Source of the DNA: Gemmatimonadales bacterium
GTDB taxonomy: Bacteria > Gemmatimonadota > Gemmatimonadetes > Gemmatimonadales > GWC2-71-9
Length of the DNA stretch: 64,000 bases
Direction: 5' to 3'
Assembly: GCA_035759745.1 (NCBI GenBank)
Contig: DASTUF010000112.1
Span: forward strand, 905-64,904
This document shows, piece after piece, positions 341-16,109 of the stretch. The number at the start of each line of letters is the position of its first letter. Positions within the stretch are counted from its first letter, which is position 1. The position numbers and the translations under genes were made by a program. Under the pieces are notes generated by a model. It made no database searches and was not told where the DNA came from. It saw only the letters and a list, made by a program, of their open reading frames with translations.

Positions 341-2260
341 ATGTCCCAGCCACTCACTCGCCTCACCCAGCCGCTCGTTCGCGAGGGTGGAGTCCTCCGT
401 CCCGCCTCCTGGGAGGCCGCGCTCGATCGCGCCGCCGAGGGGTTCCGGAAGGCGAAGGATCAGCACGGAGGCGATGCTCTCGCGACCATGAGCTGCTCCA
501 AGGCCAGCAACGAGATGAACTACCTGGCCGCGAAGCTCACGCGGGTTGCGTTCGGCACCCACAACATCGACAGCTGCAACCGAACGTGACACGCTCCTAG
601 CGTCGTCGGTCTGGCGACGGTGTTTGGTGCCGGTGGGGGGACGACCTCCTACCGCGAGGTGGAAGAGACCGACGTCATCTTCCTCTGGGGAGCGAACGCC
701 CGGGAAAACCACCCGATCTTCTTCCATCATGTCCTGAAGGCGCTCCACCGCGGCGCGAAGCTCTTTGCCGTGGATCCGCGCCGCACGGCCTCGGCCCAGT
801 GGGCCGACGACTGGCTCGGCCTCCATGTGGGCACCGACATCGCCCTTGCTCATGCGATGGCTCGGGTGATCATCCACGCCGGTCTCGCCAACGAGGAGTT
901 CATCCGGCGGGCGACGACCGGCTACGAGGAATATCGCCAGGAGGTGGAGCAGTTCCCGCTCGATGTGGCGGAGCGGATCACCGGCGTCCCGGCCGAGGTG
1001 ATCGAGCGCGCTGCGCTGACCTACGCCCGCGCCGGACGTGCCGTGATCTGCTGGACCCTCGGCATCACCGAGCACCACAACGGGACCGACAACGTCTTCG
1101 CCCTGATCAACCTGTCGCTGCTGACCGGCCACATGGGGCGCTACGGCTCGGGCCTCAGCCCCCTCCGGGGCCAGAACAACGTGCAGGGTGGCGGCGACAT
1201 GGGCGCGATTCCCAACCGGCTGGTCGGGTTCCAGGACTGGACCACCGACGCCGACGTGCGCCAGCGGTTCGAGCGCGCGTGGAACACCACGCTGAAGCCG
1301 GAGTACGGCAAGAATCTCTCGGAGATGTTCGAGGCGATGGAGCATGGCGAGATCCGCGCGGTCTATGCCATCGGCGAGAACCCGGCGCGCTCTGAAGCCG
1401 ACCAGGGCCGCGCCGAACGCCTGATTCGCGGCCTCGACCACCTGGTGGTGCAGGACATCTTCCTCACCCGGACGGCGGAGCTGGCCACCGTGGTGCTGCC
1501 GGCCTCGGCCAGCTGGTGCGAAGCGGAAGGCACCGTCACCAACAGCGAGCGCCGGGTACAGCGGGTGCGCAAGGCGCTGGATCCGCCGTTCGACGCCCGC
1601 GACGACATGTGGATCATCGCCGAAATCGCCCAGCGCCTGGGCTACGATTGGGGGCACCCGACCGCCGAGGAGCTCTGGAACGAGCTGCGGACCCTCGCAC
1701 CTATGTTTGCGGGAATGAGTTACGAGCGGCTGGAAAAGGAAGGCGGGCTGCAGTGGCCCTGCTACGACGAGAATCATCCAGGCGAGCTGTTCCTGCACTC
1801 GCGGCTCTGGGCCGAGCCGCGCGGTGGCCCGCCGGCGCCATTCATGGCGGTGAAGCACGAGATGCCGGTTGAGATGCCGGACGACGAATATCCGTTCCAG
1901 CTCACCACCGGTCGGCGGCTCGACTCCTACAACACCGGGGTTCAGTCCAGTGGCTACACTTCCCCGCTCCGGCGCGGCGAATCGGTGGACATGTCGCCCG
2001 AGGACGTGGCCCGCCTCGGCTTCGCCGATGGCGAGCGTGTGCGCATCTCGTCACGGCGAGGCAGCGTGACCGCCCCGGTGCGAATCGACCACAGCCTCAG
2101 GCCCGGACTGGTGTTCATGACCTTCCATTTCCAGGACGACGTGCGCACCAACCTGCTCACCATCGACGCCACGGACCCGAAGTCGGGCACCGCCGAGTTC
2201 AAGGCGTGCGCAGTGCGGATTGATCCGGTCGAAGCCACCGTCACCGCCTCGATAGCCTGA
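341..2260 (+). CDS. fdhA: Formate dehydrogenase catalytic Mo/W-bisPGD subunit, selenocysteine-containing (C-terminal part of a split FdsA/FdhA)
   Basis: ORFs 170..589 and 620..2260 are in the same frame and are separated only by TGA 587-589. The joined product reads ...THNIDSCNRT-U-HAPSVVGL..., matching the E. coli FdhF CARV-U-HGPSVAGL active site. It also has RGQNNVQGGGDMG and a C-terminal ...TAEFKACAVRI. The likely start is ATG 341 (MSQPLTRL). Confidence 0.85.
587..630 (+). promoter_or_regulatory. UGA-Sec codon plus bacterial SECIS hairpin
   Basis: The stem C601-C607 pairs with G613-G619 (one G-U pair) and the apical loop is GGUCU. GGUCUG begins 19 nt after the UGA, the same sequence and spacing as the E. 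coli fdhF SECIS. Confidence 0.7.
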
Positions 2261-2263
2261 GCC

Positions 2264-4099
2264 GTGGACCTTCATCTCCTCGACGCCGAACCGATCGCCG
2301 AAGAGCGCGACGCCATTGACCAGCTTCTTGGTTCGGAGGCAGGCGGATGGACTGGGGGAGAACGCACCGCGACCGATCATCATAGCGCGGCGGGCGGGCA
2401 TGCAGCGCGAGACCAGCGGCACCTGCTGCTGCCGGCGTTGCGCGCGCTGCAGTTACGGGTGGGCTGGATCAGCGAGGGTGGCCTCAACTACATCTGCGAG
2501 CGGCTGACCATTCCTCCGGCTGACGCCTACGGCGTCGCCACCTTCTATGCGCTGCTCTCCACAACGCCGCGCCCGCCGCGAGTCGTCCATGTCTGCGACG
2601 ACATCGCGTGCCGCACCCGCGGCGCGGACCGCCTCTGCGACGAACTCGAGAAGAATGTCGGCAAGAGCGGCTGGCTTCGCAGTCCCTGCCTGGGCCTGTG
2701 CGAGCAGGCACCGGCCGCCTTCCTCACGGAGGCGGGCCCGGAGCCGGTAGAGCTGCTCTTCGGCGGAGCCACGGCCGCGTCAGTCGCCAGGGTGCTGGCG
2801 GGCGACCACGCGCCAGCGAAGCTGCCCCACCTCCCGCTGCCGCAGGCGGGCAGCCTGGATCTCGGGCTGCTGCGGCGGATCGGGATCGTCGATCCGTCGA
2901 GCTTCGAGGACTATCGGGCCCACGATGGGTACAAGTCGCTGGCGAAGGCGGCGCACCTGGGTCCCGAAGGGGTGCGCAAGGAAGTAACCGACGCTCGGCT
3001 GGCCGGGCGCGGCGGCGCCGCGTTCCCCACCGGCAGGAAGTGGGACGCGGTGGCGCAGCAGGCCGAGACCGAGCGGTACATCATTGCCAACGCAGACGAA
3101 TCGGAGCCGGGTACGTTCAAGGACCGGGTGGTGATGGAAGGCGACCCGTTCAGCGTGATCGAGGCGATGACTATCGCGGGGTACGCGACCGGTGCCGAGA
3201 AGGGCTACATCTATCTCCGGGGCGAGTATCCGCTGGCGCGCGAACGGTTGCAGCACGCGATTGAGGAGGCGCGCTCGAACGGCATGCTGGGCGAGTCGGT
3301 GCATGGGCTGGGCGTGAAATTCGACATCGAGCTGCGGGTCGGCGCCGGGGCGTACATCTGCGGGGAAGAGACGGCGATCTTCAACTCGATCGAGGGTTAT
3401 CGGGGCGAGCCGCGAAACAAGCCGCCCTTCCCGGTCGAAGCGGGACTCTTCGGCAAGCCCACGGTCGTCAACAACGTCGAGACCCTGATCAACGTACTCG
3501 AGATCCTGCGCGTGGGCGGCGCGAAGTACGCCGAGACCGGCAGCGGTGTCTCGACCGGGCCACGGTTGTTCTGCCTGTCGGGATCGGTGCAACGCCCCGG
3601 GGTGTATGAAGTGGCGCATGGAACCTCGCTGCGCGACCTCATTGCGCTGGCCGGCGGCGTGGCCGGCGGACGCGAGCTCCGGGCGGTGTTGCTGGGTGGT
3701 GCCGCGGGCGGGTTCATCCGGCCCGAGGAAATTGACATGCCGCTCACCTTCGAGGCCACCCGTGCGGCGGGCAGTACGCTGGGCTCGGGCGTGGTCATGC
3801 TGTTCGACGACCAGGTGGACCTGGTGGACATCCTGCGCCGCATCGCCGCTTTCTTCCGCGACGAATCGTGCGGCCAGTGTGTTCCCTGCCGGGTGGGGAC
3901 GGTGCGGCAGGAAGAGGCGCTGCACCGGATCCTGGCCGGCAAGCCGAAGGGCGGCATGGCCACGGAGCGGGCATTGCTGGAGGAGATCGGGCTGGCGATG
4001 AAGGACGCGTCGATCTGCGGACTGGGCCAGACCGCCTATGGCGCCGTCGAGTCGGCCATCAAGCGACTCGGCCTTTTCGAGCAAGCGGCTGCCTCATGA
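2264..4099 (+). CDS. NuoE-like/NuoF-like fusion (diaphorase subunit of NAD-dependent formate dehydrogenase, FdsG-FdsB type)
   Basis: The N-terminal part has thioredoxin-like 2Fe-2S motifs (HVCDDIACR ... CLGLCEQAP). The C-terminal part has the NuoF FMN/NAD motifs (GRGGAAFPTGRKW, GAGAYICGEETA) and the 4Fe-4S motif ESCGQCVPCR. It starts 4 nt after the fdhA stop. Confidence 0.85.
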   Translation: MDLHLLDAEPIAEERDAIDQLLGSEAGGWTGGERTATDHHSAAGGHAARDQRHLLLPALRALQLRVGWISEGGLNYICERLTIPPADAYGVATFYALLSTTPRPPRVVHVCDDIACRTRGADRLCDELEKNVGKSGWLRSPCLGLCEQAPAAFLTEAGPEPVELLFGGATAASVARVLAGDHAPAKLPHLPLPQAGSLDLGLLRRIGIVDPSSFEDYRAHDGYKSLAKAAHLGPEGVRKEVTDARLAGRGGAAFPTGRKWDAVAQQAETERYIIANADESEPGTFKDRVVMEGDPFSVIEAMTIAGYATGAEKGYIYLRGEYPLARERLQHAIEEARSNGMLGESVHGLGVKFDIELRVGAGAYICGEETAIFNSIEGYRGEPRNKPPFPVEAGLFGKPTVVNNVETLINVLEILRVGGAKYAETGSGVSTGPRLFCLSGSVQRPGVYEVAHGTSLRDLIALAGGVAGGRELRAVLLGGAAGGFIRPEEIDMPLTFEATRAAGSTLGSGVVMLFDDQVDLVDILRRIAAFFRDESCGQCVPCRVGTVRQEEALHRILAGKPKGGMATERALLEEIGLAMKDASICGLGQTAYGAVESAIKRLGLFEQAAAS

Positions 4100-5064
4100 C
4101 GGCACTGATTCCCATCCAACCGCTGCGGAAGCGCATCGAGATCACCGTCGACGGCAGGCCGGTCTCGGTGCCGGAAGGCAGCACCATTCTGGATGCCTGC
4201 CGCCAGTCCGACATCGAGGTGCCGACGCTGTGCTATCTCGACACGCTTCATCCCGTCAACGTCTGCCGGGTGTGCGTGGTGGAGGTCGAGGGTTCGCGGG
4301 TGCTGGTGCCGAGCTGCTCGCGGAAGGTAGAACCGGGAATGGTGGTGAAGACCGATTCGGAGCGGGTGCGCCACAGCCGGAAGATGGTGCTGGAGTTCCT
4401 GGCATCTTCGGTGGACCTCTCGACCACGCCCGAGGTGGCGGAGTGGCTCGCCGATTACGCGGCCGATCCCGAGCGCTACGGCCCGCCTGCTCCGCCGAGC
4501 GCCGCCGGCGAGCGGGACAGCCACGGGCCGGGGCATCATGAGGCGGTCGCGCCGGGATTCCGTGCGACCGTGGCGCAGCCGGTCAAGCTGGACAACGACC
4601 TCTATATCCGCGACTACGGCAAGTGCATCCTCTGCTACAAGTGCGTCGAGGCGTGCGGCAAGGATGCCCAGAACACCTTTGCCCTGACGGTGGCGGGACG
4701 GGGGTTCGACGCGAGGATCTCGACCGAGTTCGCGGTGCTTCTGCCCCAGTCGGCCTGCGTGTATTGCGGCAACTGCATCGGAGTGTGCCCCACCGGGGCG
4801 CTGATGTTCAAGACCGAGTTCGACCGCCGGGCGGCCGGCACCTGGGACGAATCGGCGCAGGAAGTCACCACCACCATCTGTCCCTACTGCGGCGTGGGTT
4901 GCAACCTCGAGCTCCACGTCCAGGGCAACGAGATCGTCAAGGTCACCTCGCCGCTGGACCACTCGGTGACTTCGGGCAACCTCTGCATCAAGGGTCGCTT
5001 CGGCTGGAAGTTCGTGCAGAGCCGCGGGCCGGTGCGCCAGTCGGAGGGTGTGGACCGGGGCTGA
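4096..5064 (+). CDS. NuoG-like Fe-S domain protein (N-terminal part of the split FdsA/FdhA)
   Basis: ATG 4096 overlaps the upstream stop (ATGA). It has a 2Fe-2S region (CRVCVVEV), two ferredoxin-type motifs (CILCYKCVEAC, CVYCGNCIGVCP), then the Mo-enzyme N-terminal 4Fe-4S CPYCGVGC...LCIKGRFGW. The protein ends at that point. Confidence 0.8.
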   Translation: MTALIPIQPLRKRIEITVDGRPVSVPEGSTILDACRQSDIEVPTLCYLDTLHPVNVCRVCVVEVEGSRVLVPSCSRKVEPGMVVKTDSERVRHSRKMVLEFLASSVDLSTTPEVAEWLADYAADPERYGPPAPPSAAGERDSHGPGHHEAVAPGFRATVAQPVKLDNDLYIRDYGKCILCYKCVEACGKDAQNTFALTVAGRGFDARISTEFAVLLPQSACVYCGNCIGVCPTGALMFKTEFDRRAAGTWDESAQEVTTTICPYCGVGCNLELHVQGNEIVKVTSPLDHSVTSGNLCIKGRFGWKFVQSRGPVRQSEGVDRG

Positions 5065-5917
5065 CCACACGCTGCGGGTGGGTGTAGACGGTCAGCCGGT
5101 CCTTCCGCGCAAAACCCACCAGCGTCATTCCTGACTCTCGCGCCACCCGCACCGCCAGTGCCGTAGGTCCCGAGATCGCCGCCAGGATCGGCGCGCCCAG
5201 TGCACTCGCCTTCTGCACCATCTCGAAGCTGGCCCTGCTGGTCACCACCACGAATCCCTCGTCGGCATTCACCTTCTGCTTCAGCGCCGCGCCCACCAGC
5301 TTGTCGAGCGCGTTGTGGCGGCCTACGTCCTCGCGGGCGAGCGTGATGGTGCCGTCGAGCGTGGCCCAGCCGGCGGCGTGGACCGCGCCCGACTCGCGAT
5401 TGAGGCGCTGATGCTCGGTGAGCGTGTCCAGCGCACGGTGAATGACGCCTGGCTCCACTGGCCGTCCTGGCGCCACCGTGTGGAGTGTCTTCAGGACTCC
5501 TTCGAGATCGTTGGCTCCGCAGATTCCGCAACCGGTGCGGCCCGACAGCCGCCGGGCGCGGGATTCGATCTCCTTCGCGCGCTGGTGGGAGATCGAGATT
5601 TTCACCTCTATGCCCCGGCTCAGCCGCTCGACCGTGACGCCGAGCAGCTCATCGGGTGACGCGACCAGTTCCTCGGTGATGCTGAATCCGACGGCGAAAT
5701 CCTCGAGGTCCTCGGGCGTCGCCATCATCACCACGTGGGGCACGTGGTTGTACACCAGCACGACAGGGGTCTCCTCGACGATGCTGCCCTGCGTGGTGGT
5801 CTCCCTCCCGTCCCTCCATTCGACCGCCTCCACCTCCAGCAGCGGGCCGGCGTGACCCAACCGTCGGAAACCGGCCGGTCCCAGGGGGCCACTGGAGCTG
5901 TCAGAGGTCGGTGCCAT
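4988..5917 (-). CDS. fdhD: Formate dehydrogenase accessory sulfurtransferase FdhD
   Basis: Carries the signature SGRTGCGICG and ...GRHNALDKL.... It is convergent with the FDH genes. The C-terminal tail overlaps the 3' end of 4096..5064. Confidence 0.85.
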   Translation of the reverse strand: MAPTSDSSSGPLGPAGFRRLGHAGPLLEVEAVEWRDGRETTTQGSIVEETPVVLVYNHVPHVVMMATPEDLEDFAVGFSITEELVASPDELLGVTVERLSRGIEVKISISHQRAKEIESRARRLSGRTGCGICGANDLEGVLKTLHTVAPGRPVEPGVIHRALDTLTEHQRLNRESGAVHAAGWATLDGTITLAREDVGRHNALDKLVGAALKQKVNADEGFVVVTSRASFEMVQKASALGAPILAAISGPTALAVRVARESGMTLVGFARKDRLTVYTHPQRVVSPGPHPPTGAPARGSARTSSRSDP

Positions 5918-7611: not shown

Positions 7612-8496
7612 TCAAGGTTGCGCCAGCCGCGCCATCAGCGCATCAGCCATCCGCGATGCAGCCTGGGGTATGAGATCGAAGCTCAGCACCGGCTCGATGA
7701 GCTCCAGCTCCATCACCACCAGCCGCCCATTCAAGCGAGCCAGGTCGAGCCGGGCATAGAGCAGCCCGGGAGGGAGCATCGAGTAGATCGCGTCGGCGGC
7801 GGCGAGGTCTGCGTTGGAAGCCTCGGCCAGCGCCAGGGTTCCGCCGTAGATCTCCTGCACCCGGTAGTCGCCCTCGGCGGGCAGTTTTCGCAGCGCGTGA
7901 CTGAACGCGCCGTCGATATAGACGAACGACCATTCGCCTTCGGTGACGACGCTGTCGAGCAGCGGCTGCACCAGCAGGCCCGGTGCCAGTTCCTTCTCGA
8001 CGTCGCGCACCGCAGCTCGGCGCACGCCCGACCCGCCCGCGCCGACCGCCGGCTTGAGCACTGCCTCCCCGGCGCCGAGTTTCTCGAGTGAACTGCGGAT
8101 CGCGGCCGGCTCGTCGCGTCCTGCCTGCCAGGTGGGCACTGTCGGCATCCCCCGGTGCGCGATTTCCAGCAGGTAGCGCTTGTCGCTGTTCCAGCGCACC
8201 ACTTCGAGCGGATTGAAGATCCGGCACCCGGCAGAGTCGATGGCGCTGAGGGTGTCGAGAAAGCCGTCCCGGTCATCGATGTAGTCGAAGGTGGCGCGAA
8301 TGGCGGCGGCGTCGAAGTCCGCCCAGTGTGTGCCGTTGCCCTTCCACGCCAACTGTTCGGCGCGGGCGCCGCGAGCGTTGAGCTCGCGCACCAGGAGGGC
8401 CTCGTCGGCATACAGCGCCTCGGAATGGACCATGTCGGGAGTGACGTGGGAAGGAAGCTGGGCGCCCTGGAGCACGGCGATGCGGGGGTGATTCAA
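7612..8496 (-). CDS. ATP-grasp domain protein (RimK / glutathione-synthetase-like)
   Basis: The C-terminal half resembles the ATP-grasp fold (...AVLKPAVGAGGSGV..., ...EGEWSFVYIDG..., ...RLDLARLNGRLVVMELELIEP...). The proposed start is TTG 8496, which overlaps the upstream stop (TTGA). The long ORF reaches 8652, but that stretch overlaps the upstream gene. Confidence 0.6.
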   Translation of the reverse strand: MNHPRIAVLQGAQLPSHVTPDMVHSEALYADEALLVRELNARGARAEQLAWKGNGTHWADFDAAAIRATFDYIDDRDGFLDTLSAIDSAGCRIFNPLEVVRWNSDKRYLLEIAHRGMPTVPTWQAGRDEPAAIRSSLEKLGAGEAVLKPAVGAGGSGVRRAAVRDVEKELAPGLLVQPLLDSVVTEGEWSFVYIDGAFSHALRKLPAEGDYRVQEIYGGTLALAEASNADLAAADAIYSMLPPGLLYARLDLARLNGRLVVMELELIEPVLSFDLIPQAASRMADALMARLAQP

Positions 8497-8939
8497 GGCC
8501 CCACGCTGCCATTGAGATCCACCAGTTCTCCATCCTTCAACTGAACGCCCAGGGTATGCTCCTCGTCCCACTGGGTTTCCATCCGGATCTCCACCGTGAA
8601 CGCTCGGCGCTCGGGATCGATGTCTACATAGGTGACATGCAGGTAGCTCCACACGTCGCCCGGGTCGACCAGTTCATCGAGCGTTCCTTCCTCGCTGTAG
8701 GGCTCGTAGTGCTCGAACAGCGCGTCCGCCACCTGCGACTCCAGCGCGGCGTACTCTGTCGGCAGCGCCGCGGCCAGTTCCAGCGCGGCTGACGACGGCG
8801 CCTTGCGGTCACCCGCCAGGTGCAACTCGACCTTGCCGTGAGGTGGAAGGTTGATGGCGCCGATCCAGTCGCCGTGCTTGCGGATGAACGTGCCCAGGCG
8901 GGCGTGGGTGAAGGGCTCTGATGCAAGGAAGGCAGCCAT
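8493..8939 (-). CDS. Hypothetical small acidic protein
   Basis: 148-aa ORF with coding-like composition, coupled to the downstream ATP-grasp gene. No family was recognised with confidence. Confidence 0.55.
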   Translation of the reverse strand: MAAFLASEPFTHARLGTFIRKHGDWIGAINLPPHGKVELHLAGDRKAPSSAALELAAALPTEYAALESQVADALFEHYEPYSEEGTLDELVDPGDVWSYLHVTYVDIDPERRAFTVEIRMETQWDEEHTLGVQLKDGELVDLNGSVGP

Positions 8940-8973
8940 GGCGGCCTCGGGGTTGGGGTCCGTTACCGTCAGT

Positions 8974-9414
8974 CTACTGCGCCGACCCGGAGCCTGCCAG
9001 CGCCTCGCATCGAGCCTTCAGTCCGCGGTTCTCATCGGCGATGGCCTTCCGGATTCCCAGCCACAGCACCGGCCACAAGAGGATCGTTAGCACACCGTGG
9101 GCGTCAACCCGCAACTCGTTCCGCGTGGCGCCCCCTTCGGGGATGACGTGGTGGCTCCCGACGAAATGGAGGCCGGGTCGGCGGGTCTCCCAGCTGAAAC
9201 GTTCACCCGGCACGAACTCGGTGACGGTCCATGTCGCCTCAGGTTGGGTCGGCTGCTTGAGGAGGGCGACGCTGCCGAGTCCGAATGGACCGTTGTCCAG
9301 CCGACTCGCGGCGGTGACGGTCGACGTCCACTCCGGCCACCGTTCGATGTCCTGGCTGACGGACCAGACCAGCTCCGGCGGCGCTGCAATTGCGATCGTG
9401 TTCTCAAGGCGCAT
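8974..9414 (-). CDS. SRPBCC family protein (polyketide cyclase/dehydrase-like)
   Basis: MRLENTIAIAAPPELVWSVSQDIERWPEW... is a typical SRPBCC N-terminus. Confidence 0.75.
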   Translation of the reverse strand: MRLENTIAIAAPPELVWSVSQDIERWPEWTSTVTAASRLDNGPFGLGSVALLKQPTQPEATWTVTEFVPGERFSWETRRPGLHFVGSHHVIPEGGATRNELRVDAHGVLTILLWPVLWLGIRKAIADENRGLKARCEALAGSGSAQ

Positions 9415-9431: not shown

Positions 9432-10055
9432 CTAGCGCGGTCGAGCGGCAGGCTTCCGTTCGGGGACGATCGTCTCGCCCCGGGCGAGCATGTCCACCAG
9501 CTGGGCGATCTTCCTGGCCCGGCCCGCGGGCGTCTTCATGTTGTTGGTGCGGAAGGCCAGTGCGAAGAGGTTGGTCTTGCCCAGGGTCTGGAACGTCTTC
9601 CTTGCGCGGGCGTTGGCCTCGATGGCGGCGCGCAGGTCGGCGGGCACGGTGTCCACGGTGGCGCTGCGGATCGGTGCGTAGGCCGCGTCCCAGCGGCCGT
9701 CCGCCTTGGCGGCGTCGACTTCCCGCTGGCCCTGCGGAGTCATGCGTCCGGCCGCTACCAGCCGGGCCACGTTCTCGCGATTCACCTGGCTCCAGGTACT
9801 CTTCGGCTTGCGGCGGCTGTACCGCTGCAGGTAGGACTCCTCGTCGTGGCTCTTCCGGATGGCATCGATCCAGCCCCAGCAGAGCGCCACATCGAGCGCT
9901 TCGGCGGGCGTCACCGTCTTCCTGCCAGTCCCCTTCTTGTAGATGCGGATCCAGATCTCGGACTCGCGCTCGTGGTTGGCACGGAGCCAGGTCTGGAACG
10001 CCTGCCAGGTGCGGAAGCTCTTGATCGTGCGGGGATCAGGGGTGACGGGTGGCAT
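9432..10055 (-). CDS. YdeI/OmpD-associated family protein
   Basis: ...WLRANHERESEIWIRIYKKGTG...ALDVALCWGWIDAIRKS...YLQRYSRRKPKSTWSQVN... matches the YdeI family pattern. Start taken at MPPVTPDP. Confidence 0.75.
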   Translation of the reverse strand: MPPVTPDPRTIKSFRTWQAFQTWLRANHERESEIWIRIYKKGTGRKTVTPAEALDVALCWGWIDAIRKSHDEESYLQRYSRRKPKSTWSQVNRENVARLVAAGRMTPQGQREVDAAKADGRWDAAYAPIRSATVDTVPADLRAAIEANARARKTFQTLGKTNLFALAFRTNNMKTPAGRARKIAQLVDMLARGETIVPERKPAARPR

Positions 10056-10083
10056 GGCGGAAATATATGGCTCGGCCGCGAGG

Positions 10084-10725
10084 CTATGGCTCGGTGACGA
10101 CAATCGTGAAAGCTGAGGTCACGCCCTCCGCCCTCGCTGAGATGGTGGCCTGGCCAGGCCCGACCCCCCAGACCCGCGCGAGACCGGAACTGAATCCGCT
10201 GCGAGGTGTGTACTCGATGGTCGCCATCGTCGAATCGCTGGATGTCCACGCGACCTGTCGCTGCAACGGGTTGCCCACACTGTCCAGAACCTCATAGTGG
10301 ATATCGGTTGACTGACCCACAGCGATCGAGCTGGACGCCGGGGCAAGGTTCACGGCCGCAACAGAGGCGCGGTGAACCAGGATCGGAATGGTATCCGCCA
10401 GGGGACGTGCCGAATGCTGCGCTATGATCAGCCCGGTTGTCGCTTCCCATCCATGGACGGTCACCTCCCACGGCAGTGGGCGCAGAAATCCTGACGAAAA
10501 CCCTACTGCGTTCGAGGGCGGATCGGACAGGAAGGACCAGTTTACCTGGCTGATCACCTGATATTCGGACAGGTTCGTGAACAGAGCGACCGTCGTGAAC
10601 TGCCCTTCCACGAGCTCGATACGGCGCGGGGAGATCCGGAAGCTTGGCGCAGCCGCTGGAGCGGCAGCCTCATCACAACCTGCGATCAGTCCGACCAGGA
10701 GCGGGAGAATCCGCATAGGGCGCAT
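10084..10725 (-). CDS. Lipoprotein with C-terminal bacterial Ig-like (Big_2) domain
   Basis: Lipobox LIAGC. The C-terminal segment is Big_2-like: VAAVNLAPASSSIAVGQSTDIHYEVLDSVGNPL...VTSAFTIVV. Confidence 0.7.
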   Translation of the reverse strand: MRPMRILPLLVGLIAGCDEAAAPAAAPSFRISPRRIELVEGQFTTVALFTNLSEYQVISQVNWSFLSDPPSNAVGFSSGFLRPLPWEVTVHGWEATTGLIIAQHSARPLADTIPILVHRASVAAVNLAPASSSIAVGQSTDIHYEVLDSVGNPLQRQVAWTSSDSTMATIEYTPRSGFSSGLARVWGVGPGQATISARAEGVTSAFTIVVTEP

Positions 10726-10850
10726 AGGTTCCTCACAGCATGAGGGAGCAGCACGGTGGTCGCAGGGGCCTGCGAAGCGACGGCACCACCAAGCAACGGA
10801 CGAGGCATCAAGCAGGAGTCAAGGCAGGGTGGGGAGCTGACGGTATAGTC

Positions 10851-10881
10851 AAGAAAAAAGGCCGGCGCACCCGCGCCGGCC
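10851..10881 (-). terminator. Rho-independent terminator after tRNA-Gln
   Basis: On the minus strand: GGCCGGCGC-GGGT-GCGCCGGCC followed by TTTTTTCTT. The 9-bp GC stem (10860-10868 / 10873-10881) sits directly downstream of the tRNA 3' end. Confidence 0.85.
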
Positions 10882-10882
10882 A

Positions 10883-10955
10883 TTGCCCCTCCTGGGCTCG
10901 AACCAGGACTCTCCTGATCCAGAGTCAGGCGTGTTGCCAGTTACACCAAGGGGCA
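10883..10955 (-). tRNA. tRNA-Gln (anticodon CUG)
   Basis: The reverse complement folds as a cloverleaf. Acceptor UGCCCCU/AGGGGCA, anticodon stem CCUGA/UCAGG with loop CUCUGGA (CUG), and T-arm CCUGGUUCGAGCCCAGG. CCA is not encoded. Confidence 0.85.
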
Positions 10956-10972
10956 GAATCTCGAATTTTCAA

Positions 10973-11045
10973 TGGAGCTGAGGGGGATCGAACCCCTGAC
11001 CTCTGCAGTGCGATTGCAGCGCTCTCCCAGCTGAGCTACAGCCCC
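10973..11045 (-). tRNA. tRNA-Ala (anticodon CGC)
   Basis: The reverse complement is GGGGCUGUAGCUCAGCUGGGAGAGCGCUGCAAUCGCACUGCAGAGGUCAGGGGUUCGAUCCCCCUCAGCUCCA. It has the G3:U70 Ala identity pair and the anticodon loop AUCGCAC. CCA is not encoded. Confidence 0.9.
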
Positions 11046-11119
11046 AGAGAGGCACAAAGGTAGCCAGGGGCCGGACTTCGCGAAAGTTCCGGCCCCGAGG
11101 CACGCCCGTTCCCCGGCCC

Positions 11120-11716
11120 CTACTCCACCGGCACCATTAGATGGGCGTACGGACTGCCGGACCACATCACCCAGGCCCCGTTGCCCGCCGCGGTTGGCAG
11201 TCCAGCCAGCGCAGCCGGATCAGCTGGCACCAGCATCGTATGCGGCGGCTCGGTATTCCACTCGCCACCGGCCGGGGGCGCCATCATCGACGGGTCATCG
11301 TTGCTTGCATCCGCCCCGCCCTGGAGCATGTACCCCACCCCGGCCTCGTCGGTCTCGAACGGCGCCTGCCGACTCCAGGCGTCGACCAGCCGGACCCACA
11401 CCGAATCGAGGCACATCGGGTCGTTGACCGGGGTCAGCGGCAGGTCGGGCATGCAGGTCCAGCCATTGGTGCCCGCCCGCAGCTGGGTCATCGGCGCACC
11501 CGCGCTGTCCCCCCACGCCATGACGGTCGCATTCGCCGTGACCACGGAAGGCCCCGCGCTAATCGCATTCTGGATACTCCACTCCGGCGTGCCCTCCGCC
11601 GGCATGGTAGCCTCGGCCGCCATCTCGGATTCGCCCTCCGCAGCCTCGGGCGCTGGTCGCTGGCAGCCAAACAGGAGGAAAGGAACCACTGCCACTGCTG
11701 CGGGAAGCCGATACAT
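11120..11716 (-). CDS. Hypothetical lipoprotein
   Basis: Signal peptide with lipobox (FLLFGC). It is followed by the hairpin GGGGCCGGA...TCCGGCCCC at 11067-11096. Confidence 0.6.
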   Translation of the reverse strand: MYRLPAAVAVVPFLLFGCQRPAPEAAEGESEMAAEATMPAEGTPEWSIQNAISAGPSVVTANATVMAWGDSAGAPMTQLRAGTNGWTCMPDLPLTPVNDPMCLDSVWVRLVDAWSRQAPFETDEAGVGYMLQGGADASNDDPSMMAPPAGGEWNTEPPHTMLVPADPAALAGLPTAAGNGAWVMWSGSPYAHLMVPVE

Positions 11717-11766
11717 AAAGATCCTCCTTCATGTCAAGGCTCGGACTGCGGAATAGAACTGGAACG

Positions 11767-12705
11767 TTAGAGCATATGCTCCGGTACATCGGTGCGGAAC
11801 CCCACCTCCACCACCATCCCGTCCCGCGCCACCGACACTTCGGAAAATTCCTCCTGCGCCTCGGCCAGCAGCTCCGGCGCGTCCCGGGTGTACCGGGGGC
11901 TTATGTGGGTCAGCACCAGCTGGCGGACCCCTGCCTGCCGGGCCACCCGGGCCGCCTCCCGGGCGGTCGAGTGCCCGGTCTCCACCGCCCGCTCCTTCTC
12001 CTCATCGATGAACGTGGCCTCGTGCACCAGCAGGTCCGCCCCCCGGGAGGCCTCTACCAGCGCCGAGACCGGACGGGTGTCGCCCGAATAGACCACGGTG
12101 CGCCCCGGCCGGGAGGGACCCACCAGCTCTTCCGGGCCCACCTCCCTGCCATCCTCCAGCCGGATCCGCTCGCCCCGGTGGATCTGGCCCCAGAGCGGTC
12201 CCTCCGGCACTCCCAGCTCCCGGGCGAGGTCGGGGTCGAAGCGCCCTTTCCGGATGTGTTCCACCAGGGCCCAGCCGATGGTGTCGGCCCGGTGCTCGGT
12301 GGGGAACGCCACCAGGTCATAGTCCTTCCGCTTGAGCACGTCGCCGGCGGCGACCTCGACGATCTCGACCGGGAACTTGTTGCGCTCGATCCCGACGCCC
12401 AGCGCCGCACCGAGCACCCGCTTCGCCCCCTTCGGCCCGTGCAGTGTCAGCGGCGCGGTGCGGTCCAGCAGTCCCATGGTGCGCACCAGGCCGATGACGC
12501 CCAGCATGTGGTCGGCGTGGAAATGGCTGAAAAAGATCTCGGTGAAGCTGAAGCCCACGCCGTAACGCATCATCTGGCGCTGGGTGCCCTCGCCGCAATC
12601 GAAGATCAGCGTCTCGCCCTCGCGCTGGATGGCGAGCGACGAAACGTTGCGGTGGACCGACGGCATCGCGGCGCCGGTGCCGAGGAAGGTGAGGGAGAGT
12701 GACAC
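11767..12705 (-). CDS. rnz: Ribonuclease Z
   Basis: LTFLGTGAAMP...LIFDCGEGTQRQM...FFSHFHADHMLG (metallo-beta-lactamase HxHxDH). GTG 12705 gives a product of typical length (312 aa). The longer ORF reaching 12855 runs through an intergenic repeat. Confidence 0.85.
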   Translation of the reverse strand: MSLSLTFLGTGAAMPSVHRNVSSLAIQREGETLIFDCGEGTQRQMMRYGVGFSFTEIFFSHFHADHMLGVIGLVRTMGLLDRTAPLTLHGPKGAKRVLGAALGVGIERNKFPVEIVEVAAGDVLKRKDYDLVAFPTEHRADTIGWALVEHIRKGRFDPDLARELGVPEGPLWGQIHRGERIRLEDGREVGPEELVGPSRPGRTVVYSGDTRPVSALVEASRGADLLVHEATFIDEEKERAVETGHSTAREAARVARQAGVRQLVLTHISPRYTRDAPELLAEAQEEFSEVSVARDGMVVEVGFRTDVPEHML

Positions 12706-12748
12706 GGTCAGCGGCTCGGCAGCTCCTGGCTCGTTGGCGTAGCGGGAA

Positions 12749-12945
12749 CTGCAACCGCAGATTGCGCAGATTCCAGCTGCTGATTGTTCGTTGCCGAATC
12801 TGGCGACTGATTCCCGGGCCGAGTTGGCCGCAGGTGTTCTTGTGGGTTCTCCCACGAAAACAACCGAACCTCAGGCCGCCCGTAAGAGGAGGTCAGCCGA
12901 CCTCAGGCAATCAGCAGTGCAAATCTGCGCAATCTGCGGTTGCAG
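12749..12945. repeat. Inverted-repeat element, CGCAGATT-word family (copy 1)
   Basis: The left arm (12749-12786) and right arm (12908-12945) are reverse complements with a perfect 24-nt core, CTGCAACCGCAGATTGCGCAGATT. The spacer is about 120 nt. It is related to 45028..45289. Confidence 0.75.
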
Positions 12946-12970
12946 TTGCAGTGCCAATCGCAGTCCAACC

Positions 12971-13879
12971 CTAGAACACCTGGACTTGAATCGGAATCTT
13001 CCCCGGATTGGCCCGGATCGCCGCCATCAGCGAATCCAGCTGCGCGGTGGCCCGCACCATCCCGAAGTAGAGCGTGCTGTCGGACATGAACTTGCCCAGC
13101 GAGCCCTCGCCCCGGTTCATGCGGGCGAGCATCTGCTGCAGCTCGTCGCCGGTAGCGGCGAGTTTGGTGGACATCGCCTGCAGGCTCTGGGTGAGTGAAT
13201 CGCTCCGGTCCAGCGCGGCCTTGAGCCCCGGGTTGCCCACGACGCCCTCGAGCTGAGTGGACAGCGTCCGGAACTCCGACAGCGTGCGGGTCAGCTCGGC
13301 CGACGGGCCGGTGTTGGGGTTGGCGTAGAGCGCCATGGTCTGCTGGGTGGCGGCCAGGGTCTGCTGCAGCGCCGTCATGGTCTTCTCCAGCGCCTCGGTC
13401 ATCTCGGGCGACACCATCGCCTGGAAGCCCGACAGGACCGAGTCGGCCCGCGCTGCCAGGGGACCTACCACGTCGGTAATCCCCAGTTGCGACGTGCCCA
13501 TGATGATCGCGTCGGGCGGCAGCGGCTCCGGATCGTCGCCCGGAACCAGCGCGATCGCGGCGTCGCCGGCGGCGAGACTGACCGTGAAAATCGAGGCCGC
13601 AGCATCCTTCTGCAGCGGGAGGTCGCGGGTGAGCGCCACTTCCACCAGCACCTCGCCCGGCTGCACGAAGTTGATCGACTGGACCTTGCCCATCTCCACG
13701 CCGGAGATGCGGACCGCCGATGCTTCCTTGAGGTTGCCGATGTTCTCGAACTGGATCCGCACCAGCTCGCCCGGGTTGAACGACTTGCCCCGGAGCCACA
13801 TCGTCGCGGCGATGAAGAGGACGATGCCCAGCAGCACCAGCCCGCCCACCGAGATTTCCTTCTTGTAGTGCAGGTCCAT
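12971..13879 (-). CDS. mlaD: MlaD / MCE-family protein
   Basis: N-terminal TM helix followed by an MCE domain (...VRIQFENIGNLKEASAVRISGVEMGKVQSINF...). Last gene of the mlaE-mlaF-mlaD arrangement. Confidence 0.8.
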   Translation of the reverse strand: MDLHYKKEISVGGLVLLGIVLFIAATMWLRGKSFNPGELVRIQFENIGNLKEASAVRISGVEMGKVQSINFVQPGEVLVEVALTRDLPLQKDAAASIFTVSLAAGDAAIALVPGDDPEPLPPDAIIMGTSQLGITDVVGPLAARADSVLSGFQAMVSPEMTEALEKTMTALQQTLAATQQTMALYANPNTGPSAELTRTLSEFRTLSTQLEGVVGNPGLKAALDRSDSLTQSLQAMSTKLAATGDELQQMLARMNRGEGSLGKFMSDSTLYFGMVRATAQLDSLMAAIRANPGKIPIQVQVF

Positions 13880-13881
13880 GG

Positions 13882-14637
13882 TCAGGCCTCGGGAAGCGTG
13901 GCGTCCTGGAAGTCGCGCTCGAGAAACTCCCGCACCTTGGGACTGTCCGAGGCGAGAAACTCCTGCTGCGTTCCCTGCATCACGATCTTCCCTTCGCTGA
14001 GCAGCGCCAGCCGGTCGGCCACCCGGAATGCGCCGCGGACGTCGTGGGTCACCATCACGCTGGTGACGCCCAGCTCCTTGTCGAGCTGCTTGACCAGGTC
14101 ATCGATGATGTCGGCGTTCACGGGATCGAGCCCGGACGTCGGTTCGTCATAGAGCAGGTAGTCGGGCTCGCCCACGATGGCGCGGGCGATGCCCACCCGC
14201 TTGCGCATGCCGCCCGACAGCTCGGCCGGGTACTTCTCGATCGTTTCCGGCGCGAGGTTCACCAGCCGGATACAGCGCGACACTGCTTCCCGGCTGTAGC
14301 CTATGTCGTCGAACTTCTCGGTGTCCGAGATGCCCAGCCGCACGTTCTCGAACACGTTCATCGAGTCGAAGAGCGCGCCGTTCTGGAACACGTAGCCAAT
14401 GCGGTAGCGCAGCTGCCGCAAGTCGTTCCGCTTGAGTTTCGGCACGTCGAGCCCGTCCACCACCACGTTGCCGCGGTCGGGCTTGATCAGCCCGATGATG
14501 TGCTTGAGCAGGACGCTCTTCCCGGTGCCCGACGGACCCAGCAGCGCCACGGTCTCGCCGTCCGCCACCGTGAAGTCCACCCCGTCCAGCACCACCTGCT
14601 CGCCGAACCGCTTGGCGACATCCCGAAGCTCGATCAC
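13882..14637 (-). CDS. mlaF: ABC transporter ATP-binding protein (MlaF-type)
   Basis: Walker A GPSGTGKS, signature LSGGMRKRV, Walker B LLYDEP. GTG 14637 overlaps the mlaE stop (GTGA). The longer ORF reaching 15165 overlaps mlaE. Confidence 0.85.
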   Translation of the reverse strand: MIELRDVAKRFGEQVVLDGVDFTVADGETVALLGPSGTGKSVLLKHIIGLIKPDRGNVVVDGLDVPKLKRNDLRQLRYRIGYVFQNGALFDSMNVFENVRLGISDTEKFDDIGYSREAVSRCIRLVNLAPETIEKYPAELSGGMRKRVGIARAIVGEPDYLLYDEPTSGLDPVNADIIDDLVKQLDKELGVTSVMVTHDVRGAFRVADRLALLSEGKIVMQGTQQEFLASDSPKVREFLERDFQDATLPEA

Positions 14638-15428
14638 ACCGTGAGCAGCAGCTGCGCCAGCAGGGTATCGAGCAGCAGGATCAGCACCGAGGCGCTCACC
14701 ACCGCACCGGTGGTGGAGCGGCCCACACCTTCGGCCCCCTGGCCGGTATTGAAGCCCATGTAGCAGGGGATGAAAGTGATGGCGCCAGCAAAGAAGAAGG
14801 CCTTGATGAGCGAATAGTAGGCATCGAACGGGCGATAGTATGCCTGCGCGCCGTAGGCAAAGTCGGCATTGGTGAGCGGCATGACCTGCCGCGCGGAGAA
14901 CCAGCCCATCGCCACGCCGATCACATCGGCGAAGATCACCAGGACCGGCACCATGATCAGCCCCGCCACCACCCGTGGCACCAGCAGATGCGATGCCGGC
15001 GACCGGCCCAGGCTCTCCAGCGCGTCTATCTGCTCGGTGACCCGCATGGTGCCTATTTCGGCGGCGTAACGCGCCCCGATCCGGCCGGCGAGGATGAGTC
15101 CCGTGAGCACCGGCCCCAGCTCGAGGACGATCGACTGGGTGACGAGGGTGCCCACCACGAACCACGGAAGGTTGCCCTGGAACTGGTAGCCGGCCTGGAG
15201 CGCCGTCACCGCCCCGGCGAACGCGCTCACCAGCAGCACGATGAACAGGCTGCCGATGCCGATGTTCCAGGCCTCATCGAACGCCCGGGGCACCCAGATG
15301 CGTGGTTCCTTGAGGCCCCGGAAGAACTCCACCACCAGCATGCTCAAGCGTCCCACGTGCGCCAGAGCGCCGAGGACAACCCGACCGATGGATCGGCGGA
15401 GATTGAAGCGCTGGGGGGGAGGAGGCAT
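14634..15428 (-). CDS. mlaE: ABC transporter permease (MlaE-type)
   Basis: Multi-TM protein with the MlaE-like ...EIGTMRVTEQIDALE... motif. Confidence 0.85.
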   Translation of the reverse strand: MPPPPQRFNLRRSIGRVVLGALAHVGRLSMLVVEFFRGLKEPRIWVPRAFDEAWNIGIGSLFIVLLVSAFAGAVTALQAGYQFQGNLPWFVVGTLVTQSIVLELGPVLTGLILAGRIGARYAAEIGTMRVTEQIDALESLGRSPASHLLVPRVVAGLIMVPVLVIFADVIGVAMGWFSARQVMPLTNADFAYGAQAYYRPFDAYYSLIKAFFFAGAITFIPCYMGFNTGQGAEGVGRSTTGAVVSASVLILLLDTLLAQLLLTV

Positions 15429-15449
15429 GCGGTAGTATCTTGCCCCACC

Positions 15450-16109
15450 ATGCCACGTAAGTCCAGCCTGCGCACGCTCTCACGCGGCCCCGAATTCCGC
15501 CGCCGCCTGCTGCGCTGGTTCCGGGCCCACGGCCGGGACCTGCCCTGGCGCCGGACCCGCGATCCCTACGCCATCCTGGTTTCCGAGTTCATGCTGCAGC
15601 AGACCCAGGTCTCACGGGTGCTGGAATACTGGCCCCGCTTCCTGGAGCGGTTCCCCGCCCTGCCGGCGCTGGCGTCGGCGCCGCCTGCCAGTGTCCGGGA
15701 GGCGTGGGATGGCCTGGGCTATTATCGCCGGGCTGCCAACCTGCAAAAGCTGGCACGTACGGTGGTGGACAACGGGGGCGTGCTGCCGGACGACCCGGCG
15801 CAGCTGCGTGAGCTGCCGGGCGTGGGACGCTACACTGCGGGCGCGGTGGCGAGTTTCGCCTACGAGCGGCGCACCGCCGCGGTGGACACCAATGTCGCGC
15901 GAGTGCTGCGACGCGCATTCCATCCCCGCCGCGCCAGCGAGGCGACGCTGTGGGCGACGGCCGAGGCACTGTTGCCGAGACGGGGGAGCGATGTGTGGAC
16001 CTTCAACCAGGCGATCATGGAGCTGGGAGCACTGGTGTGCACGGCAAGAGTGCGGCGATGCGACGTGTGTCCGGTGCGGCAAGCCTGTGCGACTGGACGA
16101 CCAAAGTGA
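15450..16109 (+). CDS. HhH-GPD DNA glycosylase, MutY-like, short form without the C-terminal NUDIX-like domain
   Basis: ...LPWRRTRDPYAILVSEFMLQQTQV...LPGVGRYTAGAVASFAY... plus the 4Fe-4S loop CTARVRRCDVCPVRQAC. 219 aa. Confidence 0.75.
   Translation: MPRKSSLRTLSRGPEFRRRLLRWFRAHGRDLPWRRTRDPYAILVSEFMLQQTQVSRVLEYWPRFLERFPALPALASAPPASVREAWDGLGYYRRAANLQKLARTVVDNGGVLPDDPAQLRELPGVGRYTAGAVASFAYERRTAAVDTNVARVLRRAFHPRRASEATLWATAEALLPRRGSDVWTFNQAIMELGALVCTARVRRCDVCPVRQACATGRPK

Follow-up and report, generated by a model that had tools for sequence, protein, structure and literature searches.

Formate dehydrogenases (FDHs) linked to nicotinamide adenine dinucleotide (NAD+) are described from several bacteria, and a close comparison for the locus reported here is FdsABG(D). 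This soluble molybdenum enzyme, known from Rhodobacter capsulatus and also from Cupriavidus necator (PDB 6TG9/6TGA, 6VW7), has a NuoG-like Fe-S front, a proximal [4Fe-4S] cluster and an FdhF-like bis-MGD (MGD, molybdopterin guanine dinucleotide) domain. It also has a NuoF-like flavin mononucleotide (FMN)/NAD unit, a NuoE-like [2Fe-2S] unit, an FdhD/FdsC maturation factor, and a lysine and a glutamate in the NAD site. Each of these has a counterpart in a three-gene FDH operon of a Gemmatimonadales bacterium, found in a 64,000-nt stretch of contig DASTUF010000112.1 (the window; gene coordinates are positions of that stretch). Here the alpha chain is cut behind the proximal-cluster domain, and the two halves are encoded in swapped order around the diaphorase gene. 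Selenocysteine (Sec) replaces cysteine at the metal, the cluster termed A4 is absent, and the NuoE-like and NuoF-like parts are fused.

MeFDH1 (Fdh1AB; PDB 7E5Z/7VW6), an NAD+-dependent FDH with tungsten from Methylobacterium extorquens AM1, resembles the new system in its few subunits. Its alpha subunit, unlike that described here, is a single 989-aa chain carrying the proximal cluster. Residues 189-559 of its 572-aa beta subunit correspond to the NuoF-like part (residues 213-602) of the present diaphorase, and a further stretch precedes them. The beta subunit is taken by us to be a NuoE-NuoF fusion of the same kind, and the active-site ligand of MeFDH1 is cysteine. In formylmethanofuran dehydrogenase (FwdB/FwdD), the catalytic chain retains its proximal cluster. 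That enzyme (PDB 5T5I) belongs to the same superfamily and likewise spreads its catalytic chain over two polypeptides. Its cut lies at the C-terminal cap domain, whereas here it is N-terminal and separates the proximal cluster from the catalytic part.

An alpha chain in two genes

The operon consists of three genes on one strand:

341..2260, + strand: A_C, catalytic subunit, 639 aa; ATG start at 341, stop at 2258-2260, in-frame TGA read as U (Sec)
2264..4099, + strand: EF, diaphorase, NuoE-NuoF fusion, 611 aa; GTG start, stop at 4097-4099
4096..5064, + strand: A_N, Fe-S subunit, 322 aa; ATG start

An earlier reading of this DNA, made without database searches (the sequence-only reading), had placed the genes at these coordinates in the order catalytic part, NuoE/F fusion, Fe-S part. 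Both the coordinates and the order were confirmed, the latter by translations, domain matches and relatives. The tight coupling that it described was correct for the A_N ATG at 4096, which overlaps the EF stop codon (ATGA), but not for a 4-nt gap behind A_C: the EF start codon (2264) comes 3 nt past the A_C stop.

The two halves of the alpha chain fit together at a single point. Against NCBIfam TIGR01591 (Fdh-alpha, 672 positions), A_N residues 260-310 match positions 1-51 (54.5 bits) and A_C residues 6-627 match positions 52-672 (650.6 bits). A_C alone falls just below the curated cut-off of 666.25 bits, which only the two chains together exceed (650.6 + 54.5 = 705 bits). An end-to-end alignment with R. 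capsulatus FdsA (6tg9_A), which the sequence-only reading had proposed, gave complementary stretches: residues 25-304 correspond to A_N 14-308, and residues 308-931 to A_C 7-627. A_N ends with KGRFGWKFVQSRG and a short tail, and A_C starts with MSQPLT-RLTQPLV; the fused relative P0149 reads KGKFGFEFEMSGD-RLTTPLV across the junction. The cut neither loses nor duplicates a conserved residue. An in-frame CxxCxxxC motif upstream of the catalytic gene was absent from all 64 loci of 64 inspected, and a stop often occurs within a few codons. The TIGR01591 and FdsA coordinates and the conservation thus bear out one canonical alpha chain cut just after the molybdenum (Mo)-enzyme 4Fe-4S domain. The occurrence of a split, permuted FDH is confirmed, and its interpretation as one alpha chain in two parts and in permuted order is supported.

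The catalytic half contains PF00384 (Molybdopterin, residues 7-431) and PF01568 (Molydop_binding, 519-624) as its only Pfam domains, and neither the Pfam scan nor the sequence gave an Fe-S cluster motif of its own. Residues Sec83, His84 and Arg276 (in RGQNNVQG) are kept across 67-68 relatives. Two features account for Sec:

587..589, + strand: UGA read as Sec83, the Mo/tungsten (W) active-site ligand, in CNRT-U-HAPS at the FdhF active-site position; the only in-frame TGA
601..619, + strand: selenocysteine insertion sequence (SECIS) hairpin, stem 601-607 pairing with 613-619, loop GGUCU; comparative evidence

Catalytic genes were checked for both features in 67 members of the split family and in a fused paralog from a Limnocylindrales contig (L078). 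All 68 have TGA at the aligned codon, followed by GTCGYCGGTCTGRCGAC. The SECIS segment GTCGTCGGTCTGGCGAC is likewise kept in all 68. Stem variants still pair (GTCGCC/GGCGAC, GTCGTC/GACGAC), and Actinomycetota have a two-sided change, GTGGTC/GGCCAC (C-G to G-C), that preserves pairing. The single-sequence fold is no better than shuffles (z = -0.19), so the evidence for the hairpin is comparative. The host genome (2.67 Mb, 91.8% complete) encodes SelA and SelB above cut-offs and tRNA-SeC, and holds no second FDH-type catalytic gene. The sequence-only reading had singled out Sec in an NAD-linked, Fds-type architecture. That combination is present but not unprecedented, as the fused L078 paralog also has the TGA. 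The NADP-FDH of Moorella thermoacetica is one example of a Sec-containing, pyridine-nucleotide-linked FDH.

Gene calls stop relatives of A_C at the TGA and leave fragments of ~540-550 aa, such as P0122 and P0123. The Streptomyces tendae protein P0128 (CAM5396568.1) is a split-family catalytic subunit with cysteine in place of Sec (CNRTCHAPS), although the C-terminal part of this record looks frameshifted. P0128 shows that cultured actinomycetes carry a Cys version of the split catalytic subunit.

The label FdsA-type, also from the sequence-only reading, holds for the architecture and not for the sequence. A_C scores 531 bits against 7qv7_S (record name 'hydrogen dependent carbon dioxide reductase subunit FdhF'), 469 against MeFDH1 and 415 against R. 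capsulatus FdsA, a moderate identity over the catalytic domain. Nearest to both halves are fused FdhA-like alphas of ~900 aa, namely P0125 (Armatimonadota metagenome-assembled genome, MAG), P0126 (Nitrospinota MAG), P0149 and the L078 paralog. The catalytic half is 46-47% identical to these fused proteins, the Fe-S half ~35%. Theirs is one polypeptide, encoded in L078 ahead of a separate NuoF-type gene.

Several other relatives differ in length or active site. P0222 (620 aa, metagenomic) is FdhF-like, starts where the split catalytic subunit starts and has no cluster domain. It was rejected as a second example of the split, having neither Cys nor Sec at the active site (ARFYYAP), and may be a non-catalytic or differently liganded relative. 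P0127, P0130, P0133, P0146, P0154 and P0161 (1365-1409 aa) carry an N-terminal extension of ~740 residues before the FDH domain. Fusion here goes to the other extreme: the [2Fe-2S] part opens the chain, and the ferredoxin/proximal-cluster part directly precedes the catalytic domain.

Relatives, selection and origin of the gene order

Relatives were collected in a scan with one genome per species (GTDB species genomes). At least 533 of the first 600 pattern matches encode a relative of A_N, and the best 80 of those loci were compared in detail. These 80 come from at least six phyla: Gemmatimonadota, Chloroflexota and Thermomicrobia, Actinomycetota, Acidobacteriota, WPS-2, Armatimonadota and unclassified MAGs. 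Every locus that is long enough has the order A_C - EF - A_N on one strand, with the single exception of L066, and the permuted order that the sequence-only reading had suggested looking for in related genomes is therefore general among them. For 47 of the 80, the surrounding few kb include an fdhD homolog. Among 201 sampled Gemmatimonadota genomes, 33 are carriers, defined by an Fe-S subunit at >=70% identity, and their occurrence is patchy inside genera. The plasmid collection yielded only fused FdsA-type genes, at <60% identity.

A split catalytic gene could be a broken or mis-assembled one, either a pseudogene or the product of a chimeric contig. In a single-genome annotation the catalytic gene does look truncated twice, once at the TGA and once by its missing N-terminus. 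The same order is found in independent assemblies, including the complete chromosomes OY969695.1, OZ253507.1, OZ253463.1 and OZ244775.1, so it is neither chance nor an assembly artefact. Ratios of nonsynonymous to synonymous substitution (dN/dS) against the nearest relative, L001, are 0.065, 0.095 and 0.062 for the three genes, and the overall range is 0.06-0.27. All three genes are under purifying selection. With invariant ligands and Sec machinery also present, a broken gene has next to no probability.

Two groups of loci depart from the usual arrangement. In L066 (Chthonomonadaceae MAG, DASRGL010000431.1) the A_N gene stands alone at 8001-9011, with 69% identity. Interrupted loci occur in Chloroflexia and Limnocylindrales: L057 (2522-6051), L016, L017, L020, L024, L029, L031 and L078. 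By translation, the open reading frames of the L057 insert look like an extracytoplasmic function (ECF) sigma factor, a possible anti-sigma partner and two small, possibly GYD-/SRPBCC-like proteins. The contig of L078 carries, besides its split operon, the fused paralog at 9517-15464 on the minus strand. Its order is fdhD - alpha - separate NuoF-like gene, and the Fe-S part joins the catalytic part directly. This unsplit TGA/Sec paralog is a natural side-by-side control for the split operon.

Trees were built by unrooted quick searches for the catalytic domain (n = 125; 21 split sequences, the fused L078 paralog and 103 representatives) and for A_N-type Fe-S front ends (n = 65). In the catalytic tree the split family comes out as a single clade (SH-aLRT 100, stem length 0.59) among fused and FdhF-like forms, with the fused 900-aa P0149 as sister (96). 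It is one clade in the Fe-S tree too (99). Many internal pairs are common to both trees; examples are L033+L045, L030+L056, L023+L036 and L016+L078. Within the split clade phyla are intermixed and internal branches are short, which points to a single fission of a fused ~900-aa alpha, probably followed by horizontal spread among soil-type phyla.

How the halves came to be in swapped order can be explained in two ways. The first is a tandem duplication of an alpha + diaphorase operon, followed by loss of the outer alpha parts. It gives exactly A_C - EF - A_N from an A-EF or EF-A ancestor, and the halves are each of single origin with sub-clades common to their trees. L078 also holds an unsplit paralog ordered fdhD - alpha - NuoF. 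The duplication route asks, however, for both deletion ends to fall in the same ~5-residue linker. No duplication relics lie beside the operon, which is bordered by a divergent hydrolase gene upstream and fdhD downstream, and the A_N tails are variable. A likeness of the A_N tail to the catalytic domain (GPVRQSEGV versus QPLVREGGV) was considered as a relic and rejected as chance, being limited to the closest relatives. This route, the one put forward in the sequence-only reading, is possible, though less likely than not.

The second is fission in place, by a stop and a new start in the linker, after which A_N moved behind the diaphorase gene. Fission in inter-domain linkers is the commonest route to split genes, and the cut seen against P0149 costs no conserved residue. 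This route needs two events, versus one duplication plus decay, and an unpermuted split (A_N - A_C - EF) was not found among the 80 loci; the same absence is in keeping with tandem duplication. Fission with rearrangement is about as likely as tandem duplication, or slightly less so. Both routes yield the observed order, and neither relics nor intermediates are seen.

Predicted enzyme and points against it

A_N matches PF13510 (Fer2_4) at residues 12-88, Fer4 at 176-236 and PF04879 (Molybdop_Fe4S4) at 256-308. It accordingly holds one [2Fe-2S], two ferredoxin-type [4Fe-4S] and one Mo-enzyme proximal [4Fe-4S] domain. Sixteen cysteines are invariant in 80 of 80 sequences: 46/57/60/74, 177/180/183/187, 221/224/227/231 and 262/265/269/297. 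In this order the four sets are counterparts of clusters A5, A3, A2 and A1 of R. capsulatus FDH (RcFDH). In RcFDH the electron path from bis-MGD to FMN runs through A1, A2, A3, A5 and B6, while A4 (His117/Cys121/124/130, at the dimer interface) and G7 lie off it (PMC7171172). The His-ligated A4 cluster is missing from A_N, which gave no PF10588 match and has no additional conserved Cys; its HPLDCxxC...C segment is replaced by SSVDLSTTPEVAEW, with SSVDLSTT over the HPLDCxxC stretch. In a simple pattern search of fused ~900-aa relatives, the A4 motif was also missing in ~19 of 43, the sister P0149 among them, so the split family is not alone in having lost it. A_N ends ~12 residues past KGRFGWKFVQ, and all 80 family members stop shortly after KGRFG. 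The tails are low-complexity and unconserved beyond the closest relatives.

EF matches PF01257 (49-155), PF01512 (241-412), SLBB and PF10589 (522-601) in Pfam. Among NCBIfam models it matches NuoF and NuoE, and the FdsG model NF004638 at E = 2.4e-13. The NuoE-type [2Fe-2S] ligands (Cx4C...Cx3C) Cys111, 116, 142 and 146 are invariant in all 70 aligned relatives, and the NuoF [4Fe-4S] ligands C536, 539, 542 and 585 are present. By HMMER coordinates and the motifs GRKW and CGEE, Lys259 and Glu368 are the counterparts of FdsB Lys157 and Glu259. Lys259 is kept in 74 of 75 sequences and Glu368 in 76 of 76; Glu368/369 are conserved. FdsB Lys157 and Glu259 set NAD+ binding and discrimination against NADP+, and exchange of Glu259 lets R. 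capsulatus FDH use NADP+ (PMC10671435).

The three genes are thus predicted to encode one soluble, NAD+-linked Sec-containing Mo/W-bis-pyranopterin guanine dinucleotide (bis-PGD) FDH of three polypeptides, with a partition of single origin (probability roughly 0.85). Formate would be oxidised at the A_C metal site with Sec83, His84 and Arg276. The first acceptor would be the proximal [4Fe-4S] cluster, equivalent to A1, which a 55-residue domain at the C-terminus of A_N would provide in trans. This domain would dock onto A_C and rebuild the usual cluster-binding domain. From there the two ferredoxin-type [4Fe-4S] clusters of A_N and its [2Fe-2S] cluster would carry electrons to the [4Fe-4S] cluster and FMN of EF, where NAD+ would be reduced. 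That the chains form one complex, that electrons take this path, that NAD+ is preferred and that the metal is Mo or W are all predictions from sequence. In FdhH, later parts of the chain and the cluster-binding segment pack together as one domain in the structure; we infer that the contact between A_N and A_C would therefore be an obligate, domain-completing interface.

The metal site would be matured by FdhD, whose gene adjoins the operon:

4988..5917, - strand: fdhD, sulfurtransferase needed for formate dehydrogenase maturation; PF02634 253.7 bits, TIGR00129 210.1 bits (above the curated cut-off of 140.9 bits)

The fdhD and A_N genes are convergent and share 77 bp (4988-5064). Upstream of 341 lies a divergent alpha/beta-hydrolase-like gene, and the operon therefore begins with the catalytic gene. 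An extension of A_C from an ATG at 170 was rejected, as it overlaps this divergent gene, is unconserved and adds no cluster motif. FdsD (PF11390) had no match in the host genome, nor in control genomes, so that this search had no positive control. Elsewhere in the genome, NuoF-like and NuoG-like genes (42% and 31% identity) occur only side by side at G000:C62:14283-16473, presumably as part of respiratory complex I.

Several observations weigh against a single three-subunit NAD+-linked enzyme of one origin. Within 8 kb on either side of the lone A_N gene in L066, no catalytic or NuoE/F gene is found; its partners are either encoded elsewhere or the contig is chimeric. In some Chloroflexota, 0.6-3.5 kb of unrelated genes lie between the A_C and EF genes. 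Because of L066 and these interrupted loci, strict co-transcription is not universal. The predicted NAD+ specificity derives from just two conserved residues, Lys259 and Glu368. The AlphaFold2 single-chain model of A_N (33-sequence alignment) was poor, with a mean predicted local distance difference test (pLDDT) score of 56.7 and Fe-S regions <50, and was left unused. Both trees are quick searches without a root, and the sister of the Fe-S half is unclear in its tree.

The best PDB matches of EF are B subunits of bifurcating enzymes (8oh5_B, 7q4v_B, 7t2r_B, 8a6t_B), and a more complex electron route is thus possible. Together with the best NCBIfam match of A_N, the model for group A6 [FeFe] hydrogenases, these matches would suit an electron-bifurcating FDH of the Bfu/HylABC type that also needs ferredoxin. 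In Bfu enzymes, the bifurcating unit includes a 2x[4Fe-4S] domain at the C-terminus of the B subunit, and a NuoE-like C subunit is separate. EF, by comparison, stops at 611 aa with no domain behind NADH_4Fe-4S (522-601) and no Fer4 in the Pfam scan. The operon contains no separate HydC-like gene by Pfam and open reading frames, the NuoE-like part being fused to NuoF, and no ferredoxin gene. The host phyla, judged from record titles, are mostly aerobic soil bacteria. Bifurcation is therefore improbable, and a soluble NAD+-linked FDH remains the preferred reading.

Novelty and meaning

The operon divides a known type of enzyme into subunits in a new way, and its predicted function is ordinary, not new. 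Compared with FdsABG(D) and MeFDH1, the partition of alpha, the supply of the proximal cluster in trans and the gene order all differ. We know of no other bis-PGD enzyme that has its proximal cluster on a separate chain. It is doubtful, if conceivable, that this would be the first bis-PGD enzyme with the proximal cluster in trans and a cluster-free catalytic Sec/Mo(W) protein. No description of this split turned up in the full-text literature searched, nor in look-ups within the ForCE paper and a 2026 FDH review in Chem Rev. A tentative match of the operon to S. coelicolor SCO6559-6562 was dropped, as no paper on it was found.

The finding should be of moderate interest, mainly to specialists in molybdoenzymes and soil metabolism. 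A three-piece enzyme with a cluster-free catalytic module amounts to a natural test of the need for a covalent link between proximal cluster and catalytic domain. If the partition is functional, the catalytic module could be matured, replaced or regulated apart from the Fe-S/diaphorase module, and, if the prediction is true, the enzyme would offer a naturally modular scaffold for CO2-reduction catalysts. The family also illustrates cleanly how a gene can be split and its parts permuted, an arrangement apparently fixed once and then passed between phyla. Database labels of the Fe-S subunit are generic ('2Fe-2S iron-sulfur cluster-binding protein' or 'YjgC-like') and calls of the catalytic gene are truncated at TGA, so the capacity of soil bacteria for formate oxidation is likely under-counted in metagenome surveys. 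If the predicted function is true, a Sec-containing FDH in largely aerobic soil bacteria would give soils a major route for oxidising formate that has gone unrecognised.

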